Virus record (IMG/VR): IMGVR_UViG_2909288124_000003
Span: 1 to 52,915 of that record
Strand: one strand, 5' to 3'
From: a virus
Taxonomy: Duplodnaviria > Heunggongvirae > Uroviricota > Caudoviricetes
Length of the DNA stretch: 52,915 bases
Shown here: positions 941 through 31,790 of the stretch, piece by piece
How the letters are laid out: each line of letters begins with the position of its first letter
Position numbering within the stretch: the stretch's first letter is position 1
Made by a program: the position numbers and the translations under genes
The notes under the pieces: generated by a model
Databases searched by the model: none
Told to the model about the DNA's origin: nothing
The model's input: only the letters and a program-made list of their open reading frames with translations

Positions 941-2209
941 TCAGCTCGGGCTACTGTCAGCACCACCACCTTGTTGTGCGGCTTTCAGTTTCTGGTTGAA
1001 CACCGAACTTTCTGGCATTTCGAGACGCAGGTCTATCCATCGCCCGGCGGGAATATCCATCGGCTCACCTGCGACGATCATAGCGGTTTCACTGTCAAAG
1101 CGACGTTTAAAAACCGACACGATAATGGTTCCGCCCTGAGTGGATTGCGTCTCCACAAAACACAGGGGGTTGCCATTTGAATCCTGTGGGATTTCAATAG
1201 TCCAGCCGTCAGCGTGTAGCCCGACAGCGCCACGTATTTCATATACGCCAGTAGCAATTTTTTCCGCTGTAACGCCTTCCGCCTCCATATTGGTCGCGGC
1301 ACAGCCAGAAAGTGAAAAATCTTCGAGAAAACCAGCAGGCATGCCTCTGTGATCATTGGTAAGTCGCACAACAGGTGAGGCTTTTTTTATAAACCCGTTT
1401 GCATCAACAGTGGTTGTCAGATTGTCCAGCAACAGACGGGTTGTTGAAACCCCCGCAGTGCCGTATCCGGACATTACACGGATGCCCCTGGCAAAATAAT
1501 GCACGCTCATGAGAAACCACGTATCGTTTGCTCCCACCCATAATGTGGGCGCACTTTGTGGAATTTCATAGAATTCACCCGTCATTGGCAATATGTTCTG
1601 TAGGGTTGCAAGACTGAATCCCCTCATTTTTGCCACGACGTTATCAATCACAGATTCACTGGTCGAATTATATTCGGATACAGGAAATCCTTTTTTCAAA
1701 CCAAGCCCTTCACGTGCGCTGGCCTGGGTAGTACCGCCAGTACCGCCCTGCTTTACAGACAATGCTGTGGTCAGCCCTTCCAGACTGGTGATGTCTTTAT
1801 TTACCCCTTTTTTTGCCATGCTGCCAATGGAGGGGATGCTCATGCTTACACCGTTGATGGTGACCGTGATCATCTGGTTGGCTGTAGTGCTGGCGAACGC
1901 CTCCCATGCCCCAATGTTCTCATCGTACTCGTTAATGAGCTGGGAAATGCTCTGAGCCAGCCCGTCAACCGAGATATTGTCTGATACCAGAATGCCGTAC
2001 TTCTTGCCGCTCAGCGCCGGTGATGCAGCAGGCGTTACCGTCATTGACGTGGCGCTATTCACGGATGAAATCTGAAACAGCTGCACCGGGTTAGACATCA
2101 CGATAATCGTCTGGCCAGCGCGAACCTGGCTGGCGGGTGCCGTCCAGTTCGTGCCCGTGCCGGTGGCGCTGTTTCCGTTAATGGCGATGGTTCCAGTGTT
2201 ATAAAGCAT
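941..2209 (-). CDS. Putative side tail fiber / receptor-binding protein
   Basis: Long ORF distal to J. Probable start MLYNTGTIAINGNSATGTGTNW, rich in G/T/S/N as in fiber proteins. Confidence 0.45.
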   Translation of the reverse strand: MLYNTGTIAINGNSATGTGTNWTAPASQVRAGQTIIVMSNPVQLFQISSVNSATSMTVTPAASPALSGKKYGILVSDNISVDGLAQSISQLINEYDENIGAWEAFASTTANQMITVTINGVSMSIPSIGSMAKKGVNKDITSLEGLTTALSVKQGGTGGTTQASAREGLGLKKGFPVSEYNSTSESVIDNVVAKMRGFSLATLQNILPMTGEFYEIPQSAPTLWVGANDTWFLMSVHYFARGIRVMSGYGTAGVSTTRLLLDNLTTTVDANGFIKKASPVVRLTNDHRGMPAGFLEDFSLSGCAATNMEAEGVTAEKIATGVYEIRGAVGLHADGWTIEIPQDSNGNPLCFVETQSTQGGTIIVSVFKRRFDSETAMIVAGEPMDIPAGRWIDLRLEMPESSVFNQKLKAAQQGGGADSSPS

Positions 2210-22558: not shown

Positions 22559-23461
22559 TTAAGACTGGATATTCCAAATCATTGCGTTACCGTTATGATT
22601 TTCAATGATTTTTGCCAGTGGTGCTCCACCAAAAGAATGCATGTAGCTGTGATGTATAGTCAAAACCAAATCTTGAAGTACTTGATCACTTTCAAGTTCG
22701 GTAACATTCAACCCAATTTTCTGCGCCTTATCAAAATGAATATGACGCGAGTGGGTATAGGTTGTGTGATGGTTGTTTAACTCTGAACAAACATGTGTTG
22801 CTTTTGATTCTGCCTCAGGATCATTATCAAACATGCCTGTCATAAGCCAATGCTTAACAATCTCATTTGCCCATTTGATTGCTTTCTCACACTCGCCGAT
22901 GATCGTCGGGTTTAGCTTTTGAAGAATGAACTGCCACATCTGAACAGCTGCGGGATTTTGAAAAATTTCCGTCTGCGCACGATTCCATTCTTCAATGATG
23001 GCATGGGTGGAGAAACCGTTGAACTGAGGATCAATTGGGCCAATGTTGGACTGTTTACCCATGATGATTTCATTGGCACAACATGCAAGCATAGTTCCGC
23101 AGGACATTGAAATCATAGGAACAATTGCTCTGATGTTAGTTCCAAACTTCGACCTTAAGTAATGCCCGATTGATTCCAAAGCGGCAATATCACCACCTGG
23201 AGTATGAAGTATCAAATCCAACCCTTTTGATACATCTAAACCATTGATGGCTGTCATCAACCCGTTCTTATCATCATCAGTCATCTGAGTAAGATGGCGT
23301 ACTTCTGCACCACCATGCTGTAACCACCCTGAGTAATATGTGATTACATTTCTTCCAGTATGATTCGAAAGTTGAGATAAGTATTTACGGCGAACCTCAT
23401 CCATAGGACTTTTATGGGCGAGAGCCGTTATCTCGCCCAGTACGTCGCTCCAATTAGGCAT
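22559..23461 (-). CDS. Clp-fold serine protease-like protein (SDH/SppA-like), moron
   Basis: 300 aa with LILHTPGGDIAALESIG and MISMSCGTMLACCA motifs. AT-rich and set between Rz and cos (the lambda bor position). Confidence 0.45.
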   Translation of the reverse strand: MPNWSDVLGEITALAHKSPMDEVRRKYLSQLSNHTGRNVITYYSGWLQHGGAEVRHLTQMTDDDKNGLMTAINGLDVSKGLDLILHTPGGDIAALESIGHYLRSKFGTNIRAIVPMISMSCGTMLACCANEIIMGKQSNIGPIDPQFNGFSTHAIIEEWNRAQTEIFQNPAAVQMWQFILQKLNPTIIGECEKAIKWANEIVKHWLMTGMFDNDPEAESKATHVCSELNNHHTTYTHSRHIHFDKAQKIGLNVTELESDQVLQDLVLTIHHSYMHSFGGAPLAKIIENHNGNAMIWNIQS

Positions 23462-24035: not shown

Positions 24036-24572
24036 TCATTTTCGTAACTTCTCAATCTCTCGTATACCCGCCAGGTTATTGTTGCCCTTCTCAATAACAG
24101 CCAGCAAAGGTTCAATCCAGAGGACGGCCTGGCAATACGTCATTGAGCTGGCGGCAGCGGTACTATCATCGGTTGCGTTAGTGTTCCCGGTATCGGGGTG
24201 CATTGCGCTGGCACGTAAACGGTACGCGTATTTGAGCAGCCCACCAGCGACATCAGCAGGAACAGGCAGATCACAGGTCTTTTCACGTCGGAGAATCTCC
24301 CGGTATTCGATGACAGTTTTCTCAGTACCGGCATCGATCAGCGAGTTAAGGCGGTTGGCGTTCTCTGCTATCTGGTTAAACCGATTGAAGTTGAAAGCCT
24401 GTGTAGTTATCACCGTCGCCTGCAGCGCGTTATCATTACGTAATACCCGATTCTCACTCTGTTCTGTTTCAAGAGCTGAGCGGCTACGAACCAGTAATAC
24501 GCTAAGCACTGCAATAATGATTACGACAGCCACCAGCAGAACCGCAACAATCGTAATTTTTCTGGGTTTCAT
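24036..24572 (-). CDS. i-spanin Rz
   Basis: N-terminal transmembrane helix then coiled coil; contains an embedded out-of-frame lipoprotein ORF. Confidence 0.7.
   Translation of the reverse strand: MKPRKITIVAVLLVAVVIIIAVLSVLLVRSRSALETEQSENRVLRNDNALQATVITTQAFNFNRFNQIAENANRLNSLIDAGTEKTVIEYREILRREKTCDLPVPADVAGGLLKYAYRLRASAMHPDTGNTNATDDSTAAASSMTYCQAVLWIEPLLAVIEKGNNNLAGIREIEKLRK
24140..24334 (-). CDS. o-spanin Rz1 (embedded in Rz in an alternate frame)
   Basis: 64-aa ORF with lipobox LVGCS and a proline-rich mature part, wholly inside the Rz gene. Confidence 0.55.
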   Translation of the reverse strand: MPVLRKLSSNTGRFSDVKRPVICLFLLMSLVGCSNTRTVYVPAQCTPIPGTLTQPMIVPLPPAQ

Positions 24573-25144
24573 CAGAATACCCCCGGAACTGATACCGGAA
24601 TGCCAGGGTTAAGCGGCCCGAGTCCATCCCCCAGAACCTGAGGTTTCTCTGCCCACAGGCAAACTTCACGCTCAATCTCACGCCTCGTGATTAAACCCTT
24701 CCACTGTTTGTCACCAGCATAGATCCAGCGCCGCAGTTGTTCGCATGCGCCTTTCGAATCACCCTGGTTGATTTTTCGTAACAGTGTGGAGGTTTTGAAG
24801 TTTCCCGCGCCTACGTTATACGCAAATGAGTACAGCGCCCCTCTCATCGTTTCGGGGATCGGAGCATTGATATATGGGTTAATCTGTCGGGCGACAATAT
24901 TCAGGTCTTTATCCAGCAGCGCCTGGCACTCTGCTTTGGTGTAGGTCTTGCCGAGGATAATATCTTTACCAGTATGGCCCCAGCATACAGTCCACACTCC
25001 AACAACATCCCGATAAGGCTGATAGCGTACACCTTCAAGGCCATCATTACCCGTTGGGCCAGTAATCAACGCCGCAGCGATAGCAATAGCGCCAGCGGGT
25101 ATCGCTGCAATAACGCTATTCTTCAGCTTTGGTGGCATAGCCAT
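24572..25144 (-). CDS. SAR endolysin (phage 21 R-like lysozyme, GH24)
   Basis: Gly/Ala-rich N-terminal signal-anchor-release helix followed by a lysozyme region ([11 protein letters not shown]) resembling phage 21 R. Confidence 0.8.
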
Positions 25145-25394
25145 TGCGCCGATCCTCCCGTTCTTTCCAGCGGAAATACCAGTTCACTGCACAGGTAATA
25201 ACAGTGCATGCGATACCGACAATAATTGCCCAGTCGCTCAGGCTTAACCCTGCAATTCTGTCGGCCAACATCCAGGACACCTCTTTTGCTGTTTTTGCTG
25301 TTTCGGCATATGCCTTCGCTGATACACCGCAGCCGGTCAGCGTGGTGCCTGTTCCATATGAAAGTCTGCTGTAAATGGTGCTCATTCTGGTCAT
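25116..25394 (-). CDS. Holin (pinholin S21-like)
   Basis: Small membrane protein with a C-terminus like S21 (YF(R/K)x(K/R)EDRR), overlapping the endolysin start. Confidence 0.6.
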
Positions 25395-25601: not shown

Positions 25602-25772
25602 ATGATTATCAAGCCCTGCCCCTACTGCGGAAAGTTAATTAACCCAGAATCACTTGTGTGTAGCCACTGCCGGATAGTGAATCCTTTTGTGAAGGCCAGC
25701 AGAAGAGAAAAAGCGAAGAATGTATTAGTAATCGCTCTCGTTGCTGCTTTTTTAATTTGGATGATTCTCTGA
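25602..25772 (+). CDS. Small zinc-ribbon membrane protein (56 aa), not in the ORF track
   Basis: MIIKPCPYCGKLINPESLVCSHCRIV... followed by one hydrophobic helix; below the ORF-track size cut-off. Confidence 0.3.
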   Translation: MIIKPCPYCGKLINPESLVCSHCRIVNPFVKASRREKAKNVLVIALVAAFLIWMIL

Positions 25773-26210
25773 GTTGCCAGTTTTCAATGAAGATAATGCG
25801 GGCAAAAAAAGCCTGCTCGGACGAACAGGCATGAAAAATAACAATACCGTCAAGGAGGTGGCGCCGGGTGCCTCCCGGTGGAACAGCCCCAGCCGACTAG
25901 TTCCGCGCAAACAAACCTGGACAAAAAAGTTTGACTGGACGCCCCGCCGCATAGGGGGATTCACCACGAACCAAAAGATAAAATCATCCGGTGACCGGGG
26001 CAATATCTAACCGGAACTTTTCAGAATCACTTATTGTTTCCTGGAGAGTACATGAGCGTTGGTGAATTCACGTGATGCTTTTGGATGAGCGCTGAACCCA
26101 AAGGTCAGTATTTTCACACAGCAATTTTGCAAAAAGCAGCGCCCATTCAAAACCAGGTCGCTTTCCAGTCACTCCGGGGACCCCATCATCGCAGACCGAA
26201 AAGCTTAAAC

Positions 26211-26285
<75 letters not shown>

Positions 26286-26288
26286 ATA

Positions 26289-26364
<76 letters not shown>

Positions 26365-26366
26365 AG

Positions 26367-26440
26367 TGGTCCGCCACCGGAGCCTCGAACCCCGTACCAC
26401 AACACCTGGGTTGCCGCTCTTCCCGATGAGCTAGTGGCGG
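26367..26440 (-). tRNA. tRNA-like sequence with non-canonical anticodon arm (possible pseudo-tRNA or unusual tRNA)
   Basis: Canonical acceptor, D and T arms and CCA, but the anticodon stem pairs only with a 6-nt loop (CCAGGU) in my manual fold; 74 nt. Confidence 0.4.
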
Positions 26441-26442
26441 TC

Positions 26443-26519
26443 TGGTGGCCCTTGCTGGACTTGAACCAGCGACCGGGCGATTATGAGTCGCACGCTCTAA
26501 CCAACTGAGCTAAAGGGCC
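26443..26519 (-). tRNA. tRNA with CAU anticodon, tRNA-Ile2 (lysidine) type
   Basis: Anticodon loop CUCAUAA; sequence resembles E. coli ileX-type tRNA rather than initiator or elongator Met. Confidence 0.65.
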
Positions 26520-26644
26520 GGGAGCAAGAAGATACATAGGTAAAACTACCCTTGCAATAATATGGTTTTATGATGAAAAACAATCAGGGAAATGGTTAAA
26601 TATCAAGCGGCAGTGCTTTCAATCTAACCAGAGCAAGGGAAGAT

Positions 26645-27595
26645 ATGATTTTTATTAAAAACGGCAATAGCTTTGATCGCATTAATGACTGGACAGAAAT
26701 TCAAGCTCGGGAAAGCTATCATTCCAGGCTGGAACTGACCGATCAACAATTATCCGATGTTTTTGGTTATTATGATGACCTCCCGGAAGAAATCCCGTGT
26801 GGCAAGTCGAGCTGTCGAACAGGCCATAAAAAAGGGTTTCTTGTTCTTACTGAGGATGGTCTGGAGACGAACCTGGGTCACGTTTGCGGTACAAAAGTCT
26901 TCGGTATAGCATTTGAAAACCTAGCCACTGACCTCGAGAAAAAGGCAAATTTCCACAGATATCTAACAGCCCTCAAGGAAGCCAAGAAAAATATTTTTCT
27001 CCATTACCAAGCAAAAGCCAAAATCGAAGCCAGTGAACCATCATTAGAATGGGTCGCACATAAAATTTTAGATTTAAGAGATTCTAAAGTAGTTGGCCGA
27101 GCCGGGAGTCAAGCTTTGAAACGTATGGCTGCTTTAGGAGATGGAAAAGTTTTACTTCCCAGAAGGAAAACCAAGGAAGAAATGCAGTTGTCGAATGTTA
27201 TGTCTCAAAAACCTTCCGATAACGAAGATGAAAATGCTGAGGATAATGTAAAACCACAATTCATCGACGAAGTAATTGGCATTGTTCGTAATCCTGAATG
27301 CCTCCTCAACGATTATAACATAGCGCTAATCTTCGAAAGAGATATTCGCCTTGTGCTGGAAGAACTCAATAATTGCAATCCTGACGATATTCCTGAGAAG
27401 AAGGTCATGTCATTAGGATTAAAAGTTTCCAGGCTGAATGAAAGATTTCAATTCCTTCAGGATCGTTTTGAGAAAGCATGTATATATCTCACAAAGGAAA
27501 ACTTTAAACCTTTAAATCATCAACTACATTTGAAAAAATCAATTAGCAATAAAGATAAGGCCCTTTTCAGTTCTTTCGTTAACTCGCTGCCATAA
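26645..27595 (+). CDS. Hypothetical 316-aa protein, AT-rich cargo gene antisense to the late operon
   Basis: Clean ORF with RBS AGGGAAG, low GC relative to the phage backbone, no recognisable motifs, ends at a bidirectional terminator shared with the late leader. Confidence 0.5.
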   Translation: MIFIKNGNSFDRINDWTEIQARESYHSRLELTDQQLSDVFGYYDDLPEEIPCGKSSCRTGHKKGFLVLTEDGLETNLGHVCGTKVFGIAFENLATDLEKKANFHRYLTALKEAKKNIFLHYQAKAKIEASEPSLEWVAHKILDLRDSKVVGRAGSQALKRMAALGDGKVLLPRRKTKEEMQLSNVMSQKPSDNEDENAEDNVKPQFIDEVIGIVRNPECLLNDYNIALIFERDIRLVLEELNNCNPDDIPEKKVMSLGLKVSRLNERFQFLQDRFEKACIYLTKENFKPLNHQLHLKKSISNKDKALFSSFVNSLP

Positions 27596-27616
27596 AAAAG
27601 CCCCGCAAGGGGCTTA
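27596..27616. terminator. Bidirectional rho-independent terminator (late-leader tR' and terminator of the plus-strand cargo gene)
   Basis: AGCCCC-GCAA-GGGGCT hairpin flanked by an A-run on one side and a T-run on the other. Confidence 0.6.
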
Positions 27617-27703
27617 TTGTTGAAATCTTTCAGGCGTTACTCCGCATGATTAGAAGCATACACGACAACTTCGGACAAAATCAAGCCTTATGTCGTAATA
27701 ATG

Positions 27704-28540
27704 CTAAATTTCGTCACCTTCTTCGCCTAAACTGGTTGCAGATTGAAATTCTCTTGCGGCGTTTCCCTCCTCCTGCTGACAAATGCTTACCAGCGCCTCA
27801 AGAAACGGTTTCCAGTTGCGAGTCCATGTTCTGACGTGCAGATCCGGAACGCGCTTCAGTATCACTTTATAGGCTGCGGTAGACGGCACCGCAGAAAATC
27901 CATTTCCGCTGCAGCGCTCGCAGGTTTTAAACACCGGCGCGCCGCGCTCGCTTGTGGCCTTGCGGTCTAGAACCTCGCCTTTACCGCCGCAACGACAACG
28001 GGCGCTGATCGTTCCCTTGCCTTCGCAAGCATCACAGACCGCCGGTACAACCTCTGTTACCTCCATCCACTGCTCCCAGTCAGACGGTCGAACAGCACGA
28101 GAGCGGCAGGCCCAGTATGGAGCTTTACCCCATGGGTACGAAACCTTGCGGGTAATCTGTTCGCGGGTTGTTCGTCCGGTACCACTGCAGCTGTGACACG
28201 TCACGCTTGTAGCCGCCGAACGTGAATAATCAGCAAAGGCAAATTGTGCCAACATCTGCATGCACCATCCGAACTGCCCACCAGCTGCTTTGCGAACATT
28301 CTTCGGTGCGACATCCATCGCATATCGCGCCAGCGCCTGAACTGCGAGCTGTTCATCCGTTTTGCTGATTCCCGCTTTACCGAAGAACGCCGCCAGTCCG
28401 AAGCGCGCACGGCTGCTGGTGGTGCCAATTGCCGCCATTACATCTGTTCCTGTAAGGCGGTCCGGAGAGGTTCCTTTCACGTCGTCGCTGATGTGCATAC
28501 CCTGAGGGCTAAAGTGTTTTAGTGAAGCTTCAAGTTTCAT
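27704..28540 (-). CDS. Antitermination protein Q (lambda Q family, 278 aa with extra Cys-rich insert)
   Basis: Matches lambda Q blocks: FSP..., L(S/T)GTDVMAA, FAYADY(C/S)RSAAT, C..C.GTGR, P(A/S)(S/T)AAY. Confidence 0.75.
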   Translation of the reverse strand: MKLEASLKHFSPQGMHISDDVKGTSPDRLTGTDVMAAIGTTSSRARFGLAAFFGKAGISKTDEQLAVQALARYAMDVAPKNVRKAAGGQFGWCMQMLAQFAFADYSRSAATSVTCHSCSGTGRTTREQITRKVSYPWGKAPYWACRSRAVRPSDWEQWMEVTEVVPAVCDACEGKGTISARCRCGGKGEVLDRKATSERGAPVFKTCERCSGNGFSAVPSTAAYKVILKRVPDLHVRTWTRNWKPFLEALVSICQQEEGNAAREFQSATSLGEEGDEI

Positions 28541-28543
28541 ATC

Positions 28544-28894
28544 TCAAACCCTCGTTACGTTGCTGGCTTCCCACTCGAGATCAAACTCGCTTTGCGGCTT
28601 ACCGACCAGGTAGTTAAATGGTTTTTTCTCGCCTTCCAGGAACTGGTGAGAGCGAGAGTCGAAATTAGCTCCGATGTCACCGATCCACCCTTCGCCCTCT
28701 CGTTGCTTCAACAAGCGAATCATTGAGGCAGGAAGATTGATTGCGGCCTGTTCGTCTTTGTCGAGGCTCTCATAACCCATACGGTCCGCTTTTGTTTCTG
28801 CGATACTGGTACCGCGAGATTTACCCAGACCAAAGGCACCTGCAATTGCTGCCAGCGCGGCAACAATCAGGCCGATAATCATTTCAAGTCCCAT
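28544..28894 (-). CDS. Membrane-anchored protein at the end of the second lysis cassette (possible spanin or lysis accessory protein)
   Basis: Start trimmed to MGLEMIIGLIVAALAAIAGAFGL (one N-terminal TM helix) with a soluble C-terminal region. Confidence 0.35.
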   Translation of the reverse strand: MGLEMIIGLIVAALAAIAGAFGLGKSRGTSIAETKADRMGYESLDKDEQAAINLPASMIRLLKQREGEGWIGDIGANFDSRSHQFLEGEKKPFNYLVGKPQSEFDLEWEASNVTRV

Positions 28895-28901
28895 AGTGAC
28901 C

Positions 28902-29516
28902 TCACACCAGTGCGGCTTTAGCTTTGGCGTAACGTTCACGGCGGTCTTTAATGCCGTTCTGCCCGCCGTTAATAATCTGCGTGACGCGTTCCACATCCCC
29001 CGAATAGAGGAGACAACCGCGTAACGTGAAGTACCATGCCGCCGAACGGGCCGCGTGTCGCTCTTGCGTCAATAGTTCCGGAGTGCTCACAAGGTCAAGC
29101 TTCAGCGCCGTACCGCATTTGGTGTAGTTCTCACGACCAGTGATTTGCAGCAGGCCACGACCGCGATATTTCCAGCCATCACCCTGACTGTTATTCCCCA
29201 TGCGGTCACCATAAACCAGATTGGCTATTTGTGGCTGGTGAGCGACCTGTTTACCATCGACACGCCCCAACATTTCGCACTGATACGTCGTCAGGCGCTT
29301 ACCGAAGGTTTTCTTCAGCCCTTCAACCGAGTAGTTAAAGTTCTCTACCAGCGAGGTAAAGCCATTGGATTCATGCCCAACTTGTGCAATGAACATGGCC
29401 TGATCGTTAGCTGCTGTGATTCCAAACTCTTTCATTGCAGCATCAATGTGCGGAAACCAGCGCGCAGCTAACCCGGCGCTAATGCCAGCCGCCTTTTGAA
29501 ATTGTGATTGGTTCAT
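28902..29516 (-). CDS. Endolysin, GH19 chitinase-like lysozyme
   Basis: 204 aa with lysozyme-like blocks (FIAQVGHESNGF, GRGLLQITG, AAWYF), following two small membrane proteins. Confidence 0.65.
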   Translation of the reverse strand: MNQSQFQKAAGISAGLAARWFPHIDAAMKEFGITAANDQAMFIAQVGHESNGFTSLVENFNYSVEGLKKTFGKRLTTYQCEMLGRVDGKQVAHQPQIANLVYGDRMGNNSQGDGWKYRGRGLLQITGRENYTKCGTALKLDLVSTPELLTQERHAARSAAWYFTLRGCLLYSGDVERVTQIINGGQNGIKDRRERYAKAKAALV

Positions 29517-29797
29517 TAGTGCCTCAGATGATCAACCAGGCGCGCAACGTTGCCTCTGACGGCCACTAGCACGGAAAGGAAAATAATGTTGGCCCCAATA
29601 GTGGCCCATGACGAATGAGGATAAATCCCGCACAGGTAGGCCAGAGGCACAGCGCTGTACGTGACAGTAATTAGCCAGGCTAAACGCGAAACCCACGGAC
29701 GATGGCGTGAATCACCACGACGATAAAACATCAGGGTAATCACCACCCCGACGCATAGAAGAGCGTTGATTGTTGCCGATGGGTCATTTAGTACCAC
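29516..29797 (-). CDS. Holin-like membrane protein (3 predicted TM helices)
   Basis: 93 aa with three hydrophobic segments, immediately upstream of the endolysin. Confidence 0.5.
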   Translation of the reverse strand: MVLNDPSATINALLCVGVVITLMFYRRGDSRHRPWVSRLAWLITVTYSAVPLAYLCGIYPHSSWATIGANIIFLSVLVAVRGNVARLVDHLRH

Positions 29798-30170
29798 CAG
29801 AACCTCCCCGGCGCGTTATCAGCGCCACCAAAGAGCCGACATCCTGGTTGTTCAGGAACGTCAGGATTTTGACAGCTAAAGCCGAAACGATTACGGCACC
29901 GATGGCATCCAGAGGCTTATCACTGTAACCAGTCCAGTCAGCCAGCTTTGAACCAACCAGCCCTGAGCAGATGATCCCGGCGATGTAGGACACGACAAAA
30001 TACGCCAGCCGGCGCGCTGCACTCAGGTCCGCGGCGGTTGCAATGTAAAATACAGCCACGGCAAATGCGCCAAACACCACGCCGTAATCGGTTCCGGAAA
30101 CAAATCCATAGACACTGGCTCCCGTCAGGACACCACCAGCCAGCCCAGTACCGGAAATCGGATCGGACAT
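29784..30170 (-). CDS. Holin-like membrane protein
   Basis: 128 aa, Gly/Ala-rich with multiple hydrophobic helices; first gene of this lysis cassette. Confidence 0.45.
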   Translation of the reverse strand: MSDPISGTGLAGGVLTGASVYGFVSGTDYGVVFGAFAVAVFYIATAADLSAARRLAYFVVSYIAGIICSGLVGSKLADWTGYSDKPLDAIGAVIVSALAVKILTFLNNQDVGSLVALITRRGGSGGTK

Positions 30171-30324
30171 TTAGCCCCCTCTTTATTGCTGTGAGTCCTC
30201 TCAGAATGAGGGGAATAAAAAAGGTCACCAGCGGCGACCTAGAGGTGAGTACTATTTTTTACATTAGGGTGATAAGAGGTCATATTTAATTTAAGCCTCA
30301 TAGAGGCTAGGTGTAAAGAACAAG

Positions 30325-31074
30325 TTATTTCCATTTAAATGAATCAATAACTTTCTGAATTATATCACGCACAACCTCTAATGTTTCACGTGTAACATCA
30401 ACCTTGCCGTAACTACCATTACCCATTGTGCAACCGAAACTAGAACCAGACAAATGACTAATAACAAGTACACCACCCTCAGATTTTATTCCACCATCAT
30501 CAATGGGTTGTAACTCAATCAATTTACCTCGTTTCTTTCCTAATACTCTATCTTCAATATGGTGTGATGAGTCTCTGACATGAATTAAATCTGGAAAAGC
30601 CTCACCCATCATCATTTTAATTTTAGATATTCTACTTTGGACTTCTGGTTCCTCAGGAAGAATATTAATTATTTTTTCGATTGTATCCAATGAATATAAA
30701 AATGATTTCGCATATATAAAAGGCAAGCTATGTTGCAAATAACTTGGTAGTTTCCCTTCATTTAATTTTTTTTGATTAAGGATTGATTCTACTTTTTTAC
30801 TTAACTTATCATGATTTTCAAAAACACTTAAGTCAAACTCATGTTCTATAGATTTTTGAATTTGAATCCTTTCCTCTCTGTCTTCCAACCATTCTCTTCT
30901 AGATTCAAAAGCGCCTTGTACATTCGCTATTTCTCTATCAAAAAATAAAAGTGACACAAATGCTTCATTAAAACAAGACTCTAACTGACTGATAATACGC
31001 TCAACATTTCGAGACCATTGGCTATCATCACTGTCGATCCAACTCCCAGGTTTAACTAACTCCATAATTTCCAT
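30325..31074 (-). CDS. Hypothetical 249-aa protein, AT-rich moron directly downstream of the Q-like gene and its terminator
   Basis: Clean ORF, low GC, no recognisable motifs, flanked by terminator-like hairpins. Confidence 0.5.
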   Translation of the reverse strand: MEIMELVKPGSWIDSDDSQWSRNVERIISQLESCFNEAFVSLLFFDREIANVQGAFESRREWLEDREERIQIQKSIEHEFDLSVFENHDKLSKKVESILNQKKLNEGKLPSYLQHSLPFIYAKSFLYSLDTIEKIINILPEEPEVQSRISKIKMMMGEAFPDLIHVRDSSHHIEDRVLGKKRGKLIELQPIDDGGIKSEGGVLVISHLSGSSFGCTMGNGSYGKVDVTRETLEVVRDIIQKVIDSFKWK

Positions 31075-31138
31075 TTCGCCTCCTGATTATCATCATTTAA
31101 CTCAATTTCTCATCTAATATGATAACCAAAAAGGACAC

Positions 31139-31161
31139 AAAAAACCCGCTCAATGGCGGGT
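31139..31161 (-). terminator. Rho-independent terminator downstream of the Q-like gene (tR'-like)
   Basis: Minus strand CCCGCCATTGAGCGGG followed by TTTTTTG. Confidence 0.5.
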
Positions 31162-31211
31162 TCTTGATGTTTGTTGCTCAGTTCGCTTTAACGTCCCGAG
31201 CCTACCACAAT

Positions 31212-31790
31212 TTAAGCACTTTCTTGCTCACTCTGCAACTTAAATCTGTCGCTATTTGTGCCGAATGCGTCACAAACTGGAGCGTACAGGATCGATTCTG
31301 CAAGACTTAGCCAAGTGTCAATGCGTCGACGACAGGTGATCAGCGGCCAGTCAGGATGTTTAGCCTGCAGTTCATTGGCCATCTGCAGCTTGCTCTTGCG
31401 TAGGCGATGGCGGTCGACAATCACGCTATAGAGCGATCGGTAGTCATCATTCATCAGTACAGAAGCAATGACACCATCCACTAACAACCCTTCTTCGTCT
31501 GAACAGAACGCCAGGCCGCTTTTATTTTTGCTGTTGAGGATTTCACGAAGGTACGCTTCAAGTTCAGGTTTGGTGATGCCTGATTTCTTCATACGGCGAA
31601 GCGCATCATTGATAGCTGTCTTGGTGATTTTCCCGGATGCCAGAAGCTGGTTAAACATGTTCCCACCACTACCACCGCCGATATAAGACCAGCGGCCCCA
31701 CATGCGCAACTTACCCTGTATCCAGATGCTTTCCAGAGTACGAAGACGAACCATTTCACCAGATTTACCAACTTCAGAAGGATTAATCAT
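31212..31790 (-). CDS. Putative second antitermination protein (Q-like, different family from the one at 27704..28540)
   Basis: 192-aa basic protein in the canonical Q position (after the nin-like genes, before a terminator and a lysis cassette). The family assignment is from my recollection of 82-type Q motifs, not a search. Confidence 0.4.
   Translation of the reverse strand: MINPSEVGKSGEMVRLRTLESIWIQGKLRMWGRWSYIGGGSGGNMFNQLLASGKITKTAINDALRRMKKSGITKPELEAYLREILNSKNKSGLAFCSDEEGLLVDGVIASVLMNDDYRSLYSVIVDRHRLRKSKLQMANELQAKHPDWPLITCRRRIDTWLSLAESILYAPVCDAFGTNSDRFKLQSEQESA

Follow-up and report, generated by a model that had tools for sequence, protein, structure and literature searches.

We were curious why a prophage would carry a gene that points against its own late operon. 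The gene in question is an AT-rich open reading frame (ORF) of 316 aa with an ATG start (26645..27595, plus strand; listed as PHROG 7003) in IMG/VR record IMGVR_UViG_2909288124_000003, of which we analyzed a stretch of 52,915 nucleotides (hereafter, the window). The window is part of a lambdoid prophage and matches chromosomal DNA of E. coli FAM21845 at 100% identity; identical prophage DNA was found in five of 5,426 complete genomes, namely FAM21845 and four more. An earlier note, made from the letters alone, had described a low-GC ORF between the antiterminator gene Q and the tRNAs and S/R/Rz lysis genes, and this description was borne out. The order in the window is Q, pR', tR', the ORF (antisense), tRNAs, and S/R/Rz, and the GC content of the ORF is 0.391 (0.360 at third codon positions), whereas the window as a whole stands at 0.494, Q at 0.554, and the lysis genes at 0.508. 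Among segments of 951 bp, no more than 7.6% were at least as AT-rich.

The gene and its convergence with Q

The ORF is a genuine gene under purifying selection. The Nei-Gojobori ratio of nonsynonymous to synonymous substitution rates (dN/dS) was 0.07-0.12 in the eight pairs with unsaturated dS, and the reading frame therefore encodes a functional protein. This protein aligned to the PHROG 7003 hidden Markov model with E 3.5e-118 (residues 1-315 covering positions 1-308 of the 309 in the profile), a group of unknown function without annotation. The earlier statement that it has no recognizable domain was accurate for the domain libraries, with no Pfam, PADLOC, or NCBIfam match above noise, yet the full-length PHROG match gives it a family. 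Pfam, NCBIfam, and PADLOC searches with distant relatives returned nothing either. The note had also proposed PADLOC as a check, and no known defense model turned up: no PADLOC-DB 2.0 family was hit at E <= 1 by the window protein or by its relatives from Klebsiella, Pseudomonas, and phi467.

Homologs fell into about 120 clusters, all labeled hypothetical and none with a Pfam domain. Clade 1 (313-320 aa) comprises members from E. coli, Kluyvera, Enterobacter, Yersinia, Ewingella, and Xenorhabdus, clade 2 (306 aa) members from Salmonella, Enterobacter, Citrobacter, E. coli, and Pectobacterium, and clade 3 (315-318 aa) members from Pseudomonas aeruginosa; a genome scan added Alteromonas, other Pseudomonas, Piscinibacter, and Ottowia. 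All clades match PHROG 7003, full-length matches being obtained also for the Salmonella, Klebsiella, Pseudomonas, Alteromonas, and Piscinibacter relatives. Counted by allele, the exact window protein was present on 522 assembly contigs, a 314-aa allele on at least 999, and a Salmonella 306-aa allele on 756. We found no description of the family in the literature on the accession and on Q-adjacent defense hotspots, and nothing on record about its structure, context, or function in the libraries and papers searched.

The ORF and Q (27704..28540, minus strand; 278 aa; PF03589, E 6e-54; phrog_127) converge on 108 nt of intergenic DNA. A terminator scan and RNA folding identified there a GC-rich hairpin with a 7-bp stem (27598..27615), common to both convergent units, which begins 3 nt past the TAA stop of the ORF and has a folding energy of -15.0 kcal/mol on the plus strand and -12.6 kcal/mol on the minus strand. 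A run of six T at 27599-27594, overlapping the stop codon, lies on the minus strand, which argues that the hairpin is foremost a late-leader terminator, and we read it in this direction as the canonical tR'. On the plus strand, where its tail is AUUGUUG, the hairpin probably forms the 3' end of the ORF mRNA. The earlier claim of a shared, bidirectional hairpin end was thus correct as to the position of the hairpin and as to tR' on the minus strand, and less so as to the plus strand of the window, where the U-tract is weak. At several homologous loci the plus-strand U-tract is clear (e.g., L008, L064, L068), and several of their hairpins, with T-runs on both sides, are true bidirectional terminators.

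A candidate pR' was read from the same intergenic sequence (27655..27684, minus strand), with a -35 element TTGATT at 27684-27679, an 18-nt spacer, and a -10 element TATGCT at 27660-27655; the hairpin follows ~35 nt beyond the -10. TTGATT-18-TATGCT scores 8/12, under the threshold of the promoter scan, and is plausible as pR', in which case the late leader is predicted to be about 55 nt long and to end at tR'. Given this geometry, Q-modified polymerase must copy the full ORF antisense ahead of the tRNAs and lysis genes.

The arrangement recurs across the family. We collected 111 loci with a family member, which collapsed to 84 distinct member-plus-neighbor combinations that are not phylogenetically independent. 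At 63 of the 84, the member points toward a convergent Q, which belongs to one of three types: a PF03589-type Q immediately 3' of the member (56 loci), a DUF1133-type Q-like protein, also a weak PF06530 match, in the same position (six loci), and, in a Xenorhabdus locus, a PF06530 Q 342 bp from the member. The succession of stop codon, A-run, GC-rich hairpin, pR'-like block, and convergent Q was found in 40 of 41 distinct Q-adjacent intergenic sequences, and the pR'-like block was kept in all loci with a 271-287-aa PF03589 Q. The antisense geometry pointed out in the earlier note is thus right, and conserved beside all three Q types. On its 5' side the member mostly has a holin gene as its neighbor, in which case it fills the entire Q-holin gap; tRNAs, stxA, or a non-specific endonuclease gene sometimes lie between member and holin.

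Does the gene have a promoter of its own? A candidate TG-extended -10 element (TGGTTAAATAT; 26593..26603, plus strand), recognized by its motif, lies about 41 nt upstream of the ATG. The motif TGrTTAAATAT is kept across the 316-aa clade, and TG-extended -10-like motifs occur 30-45 nt upstream of the ATG in every clade, such as TGTATAAT in L036, L059, and L060, TGATAGAAT in a Klebsiella phage, and TGGCGATAAAAT in the 306-aa clade. Their conservation is suggestive of an own promoter. A second, weaker candidate read from the sequence (TGCAATAAT; 26553..26561, plus strand) is not kept in an 89%-identical homolog, and a consensus scan requiring both -35 and -10 reported no plus-strand promoter.

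We propose, at a probability of roughly 40%, that the PHROG 7003 gene encodes a lysogen-expressed defense or exclusion protein, which antisense transcription under Q would turn off. In the lysogen, transcription of the gene would start from its candidate TG-extended -10 promoter and end at the shared hairpin. Upon induction, Q-modified RNA polymerase would pass the hairpin and copy all 951 nt antisense, and promoter interference together with sense-antisense RNA pairing would silence the gene before the lysis and virion genes are made. The protein would protect the lysogen from other phages, by exclusion or abortive infection, and would be off during the lytic growth of its own phage; its target, probably bound via the conserved putative zinc domain, would be a phage protein or nucleic acid. 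The conserved convergent layout and the common hairpin fit such a gene, on in the lysogen and silenced by Q, as the earlier note had suggested.

A precedent for this logic exists. The defense gene taiEcA (orf63) of phi80 lies divergent inside a Q-controlled operon, an arrangement termed a "noncontiguous operon" (He et al. 2024, PMC11364771); its product belongs to a tail-assembly-inhibition (Tai) defense and was proposed to be on in the lysogen and off once Q drives late transcription (PMC11364771). Both are single prophage moron genes reversed inside a Q-controlled late operon. They differ in that Tai is encoded beyond the lysis genes, close to the packaging module, with the counter-defense gene atiEcA next to it, whereas the window gene abuts pR'-tR', shares a terminator hairpin, and has no evident partner. 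The two proteins are not homologous, as a comparison with phi80 orf63 gave a BLASTP E of 2.3 and an hhalign probability of 0.8%, and Tab of JBD26 is an unrelated protein of 83 residues.

Where members lie away from Q, their placement is also of interest. In prophages of P. aeruginosa and Klebsiella, members are found in the immunity region and run opposite to their neighbors; the L097 member is two genes away from a cI-like repressor, converging with the genes downstream and sharing the direction of those upstream. These positions would support the moron or defense reading. Elsewhere the member adjoins a head protease or a replication initiator gene, and the neighbors of members in Alteromonas and Ottowia genomes were uninformative. 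No conserved small partner gene was seen beside members at the loci examined.

Exchange and loss of the cassette

Is the gene a fixed part of the late region? Comparison with relatives indicates instead a dispensable accessory "moron" cassette whose right edge coincides with the stop codon and the hairpin. At nine loci, a Q with 91-96% identity to the window Q stands beside a 306-type member that shares only 22-24% identity with the window protein, and in these loci DNA similarity to the window starts exactly at 27592, at the stop codon/hairpin; hairpin, pR', and Q thus belong together as a unit from which the ORF is separate. In phage SaltyDalty, the primase-Q-holin layout is the same and the gene is missing; its absence from related phages argues for an exchangeable moron cassette. 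Only five of 50,697 phage records have a family member.

Decayed copies were also found. The member is frameshifted in phi467 and in IMG/VR loci L098-L100; the phi467 copy (L028 4001-4875) is split into two ORFs of 132 and 173 aa, and tblastn joins three pieces of it at 78% identity to the Salmonella allele. In this phi467/L098-L100 lineage the cassette appears to be a pseudogene. An IS110-family transposase is inserted in the member of L025 (4506-5702), leaving a 248-aa remnant, and N-terminally truncated copies are present in L027 and E. coli AW1.7 (H36, H37). The cargo status proposed in the earlier note is upheld by the low GC content, the lack of the gene in a related phage, the exchange of alleles, and the existence of decayed copies, and the gene has three of the features by which morons are recognized: deviating composition, presence/absence or replacement among relatives, and its own terminator. 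It resembles in this the lambdoid moron and exclusion genes (lambda rexAB, sieB, and bor; HK97 gp15; HK022 nun) and stxAB, which are likewise extra transcription units of atypical composition, present or absent among related phages, situated at module junctions, and of benefit to the lysogen. None of these is homologous to PHROG 7003.

The swapped alleles bear on two further ideas. That the protein is a Q-specific partner was rejected, as members do not co-vary with Q. A late-operon safety device was also considered, in which convergent transcription, perhaps together with the protein, would stop leaky pR' read-through into the lysis genes or stx, or would tune the timing of lysis; in a Nun-like variant, the protein would disturb the late transcription of superinfecting lambdoid phages. 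Such a device would account for the strict placement against pR'-tR' beside three Q types, for the common hairpin, and for a gene that mostly fills the whole Q-holin gap. We nevertheless consider it improbable, since alleles at 22-24% identity stand beside Q genes at 91-96%, members in Pseudomonas, Klebsiella, and other phages lie away from Q, related phages manage without the gene, and a mere transcriptional roadblock would need no strong constraint on the protein.

The earlier note had further placed the gene in a slot equivalent to that of stx, which did not hold up. In phi467, treated in the literature as an Stx2f phage, the order is Q, the split member (plus strand), stxA, stxB, tRNAs, S, R, and Rz, and at the stx-linked locus L099 the left neighbor of the frameshifted member is a RIP-domain stxA-like gene. 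With a frameshifted copy between Q and stxA, the gene is therefore a neighbor of stx in the Q-S accessory region and not its positional equivalent. No stx gene was seen beside the split member of L098 or L100. Cargo of the stx slot, such as stx, tRNAs, and nanS-p, is on the late strand and induced by Q, whereas the PHROG 7003 gene runs antisense, so that Q would repress it; with the ORF on the opposite strand and copies coexisting with stxA in phi467 and L099, we rejected the assignment.

Two loci outside E. coli have further cargo beside the member. In a Xenorhabdus prophage (L036), a gene at 1197-1874 (minus strand) encodes a 225-aa protein with a Tad2-like (anti-Thoeris) domain and DUF7823, and this gene and the family member both occupy the stretch that separates the PF06530 Q from the downstream genes; the Q-lysis gap is therefore a general hotspot for accessory genes. 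In P. aeruginosa prophages (L033 7001-8843; also L034, L035, and L106-L108), a 256-aa B_lectin gene follows 115 bp downstream from the member on the same strand. Its product resembles lectin-like bacteriocins such as pyocin L, and the two genes may form an operon.

Predicted structure and alternative functions

What kind of protein might this be? An AlphaFold2 model built on a 33-sequence alignment had a predicted local distance difference test score (pLDDT) of 90.1 and a predicted template modeling score of 0.74, whereas the single-sequence prediction was useless (pLDDT 34). In the model, an N-terminal beta-rich domain (residues 1-95) is followed by long helices (88-164), a beta-hairpin (168-174 and 206-213) carrying a disordered acidic loop (187-205), and a helical bundle (217-314). 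Structure prediction, proposed as a check in the earlier note, thus yielded a confident model and no identity for it, as the full-length model had no meaningful match in PDB or BFVD. The PDB matches returned by full-length or N-domain profiles (MAP2K4, E 0.03; a hyaluronate lyase helical domain, E 0.001) are noise and not credible, and Pfam at E <= 10 on 11 isolated N-terminal domains gave nothing consistent. The helical body is modeled as an orphan fold.

Conservation centers on the N-terminal domain, where R22, G41, Y43, C52, G53, C57, H61, G64, T69, G72, E74, T75, N76, G78, C81, and G82 are invariant. Its C-x4-C-x3-H-x19-C set (C52, C57, H61, C81) is a probable structural zinc site. The protein (36 kDa; isoelectric point 6.5) has a maximum 19-residue hydropathy of 0.82 and no transmembrane segment or signal, and is predicted to be soluble and cytoplasmic; this speaks against a surface virulence factor. 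For a soluble protein of the cytoplasm that would have to be shut off in the lytic cycle of its own phage, a defense or exclusion role is the most economical explanation.

The putative zinc site raises the thought of a selfish, free-standing element of the homing-endonuclease type, built around a zinc-containing beta-beta-alpha unit. The gene is AT-rich and sporadic and has sharp insertion edges, and a strand-strand-helix is predicted at residues 64-86, with H61, E74, N76, and H/N79 conserved. We hold this origin to be highly improbable. An HNH or His-Me finger endonuclease was rejected, with no Pfam match at E <= 10 for the 11 N-terminal domains and no PDB profile match, and the catalytic His that would close the first strand of such a beta-beta-alpha unit is missing: an invariant Thr occupies position 69, and two clades have Asn in place of H79.

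Alternatively, a zinc-domain factor could bind nucleic acid or protein so as to alter host physiology or gene expression, as a lysogenic-conversion or regulatory protein. Such a role would come with the same moron hallmarks and the same lysogen-type placement; the invariant CCHC set and nearby basic residues (CGKSSCRTGHKKG, in the 316-aa clade) could bind nucleic acid; and the P. aeruginosa member, just upstream of the co-directional B_lectin (pyocin-L-like) gene, could regulate it. However, neither a helix-turn-helix nor another known DNA-binding domain is present in the protein, the 306-aa clade does not keep the basic patch, and a host-fitness factor offers no obvious reason for the antisense, shared-terminator layout. 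We regard the role as unlikely.

The family is common in prophages and rare in isolated phages, which speaks against yet another explanation, that the protein is a counter-defense factor. Made from a constitutive promoter of its own at DNA entry or in the lysogen, it would neutralize host immunity and be shut off late by Q antisense transcription. An independent transcription unit is in keeping with this scheme, as are the Tad2-like anti-Thoeris gene beside the Xenorhabdus member in the Q-lysis gap, the acidic disordered loop 187-205, which could mimic nucleic acid, and the allele swapping, which suits arms-race cargo. Anti-defense genes, on the other hand, usually lie in early operons and on the operon strand, and no similarity to known anti-defense proteins was found. 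On balance the scheme appears rather implausible to us.

We return to the reading of the gene as a defense or exclusion factor, against which several points also weigh. The protein has no similarity to PADLOC defense models or to TaiEcA, nor to any Pfam or PDB family; no adjacent counter-defense or immunity gene is evident; selection on the ORF is overall purifying and not diversifying; the 84 contexts lack phylogenetic independence; and the ORF promoter is a motif match only. Since the plus-strand U-tract in the window is weak, the ORF transcript may also continue into pR' and Q.

In a more far-reaching form, which we put forward tentatively, PHROG 7003 would be a new single-gene anti-phage system with an orphan zinc-binding fold, in which autoimmunity is avoided purely by the shared-tR' architecture, as antitermination by Q would of itself turn the late transcript into an antisense silencer spanning the whole gene. 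Prophages of Salmonella, E. coli, Enterobacter, and Pseudomonas would then carry this system in their thousands. In a rarer variant, the protein might act in a Nun-like manner on late-transcription termination of incoming lambdoid phages.

Should the gene serve defense or exclusion, a widespread system of orphan structure would be added to those known, with single alleles found on hundreds to about a thousand contigs in Salmonella, E. coli, and relatives of Stx2f phages. It would then be the second independent case, after Tai, of an immunity gene that lies antisense in its own late operon and is silenced at induction, and the gene-hairpin-pR' module would be a compact natural design for mutually exclusive expression. 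The case bears on how tightly lysogens insulate their late genes, stx of related phages included. If the gene has no phage-related phenotype, it would be an ordinary uncharacterized moron.

Neighboring genes and a second lysis module

Beyond the ORF, the late strand continues with a tRNA cluster (26211..26519, minus strand; ARAGORN, Rfam, and RefSeq) made up of Gly-UCC, Thr-UGU, and a CAU tRNA (26443-26519), which RefSeq annotates as tRNA-Ile. ARAGORN calls four tRNAs here, of which Rfam backs three. The fourth (26367-26440, minus strand) has an abnormal two-base anticodon, and because it lacks both Rfam support and a RefSeq annotation, it is probably a decayed tRNA. The lysis cassette (24036..25394, minus strand), assigned from the ORFs and the RefSeq annotation of the identical prophage, consists of holin, lysozyme, and Rz-like genes.

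Between the tRNA cluster and the holin, a match to the small RNA STnc100 was found at 25800-25992 (minus strand; RF02076, 71.7 bits vs. a gathering score of 47). A 56-aa ORF at 25602-25772 (plus strand) likewise runs against the late operon. Its product combines CxxC...CxxC motifs reminiscent of a zinc ribbon with a hydrophobic tail at the C terminus and weakly matches phrog_8032 (E 6e-5); the ORF may be a further small moron or have arisen by chance. Another probable moron lies between the lysis genes and terminase, a 281-aa gene (22559-23404, minus strand) with a GC content of about 0.40-0.42 that matches phrog_11747 (unknown function) and whose product is annotated in RefSeq as an SDH-family Clp-fold serine proteinase.

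Finally, the prophage has two tandem Q-plus-lysis modules, the first of which spans 28544-31790 of the window. It comprises a DUF1133 Q-like gene (31212-31790, minus strand), two holin genes (29784-30170 and 29516-29797), and a GH19 endolysin gene (28902-29516). The gap between the Q-like gene and the holins holds cargo as well, in this case on the late strand: a 249-aa ORF (30325-31074, minus strand; phrog_5322, unknown function) with a GC content of 0.28-0.37, more AT-rich than the 316-aa ORF and without a Pfam or PADLOC match. At the end of this module, just upstream of the second Q (27704-28540), a 150-aa ORF (28544-28996, minus strand) matches an Rz-like spanin at residues 34-72 and a primase C-terminus at residues 76-149, and looks like a recombination scar joining two phages.

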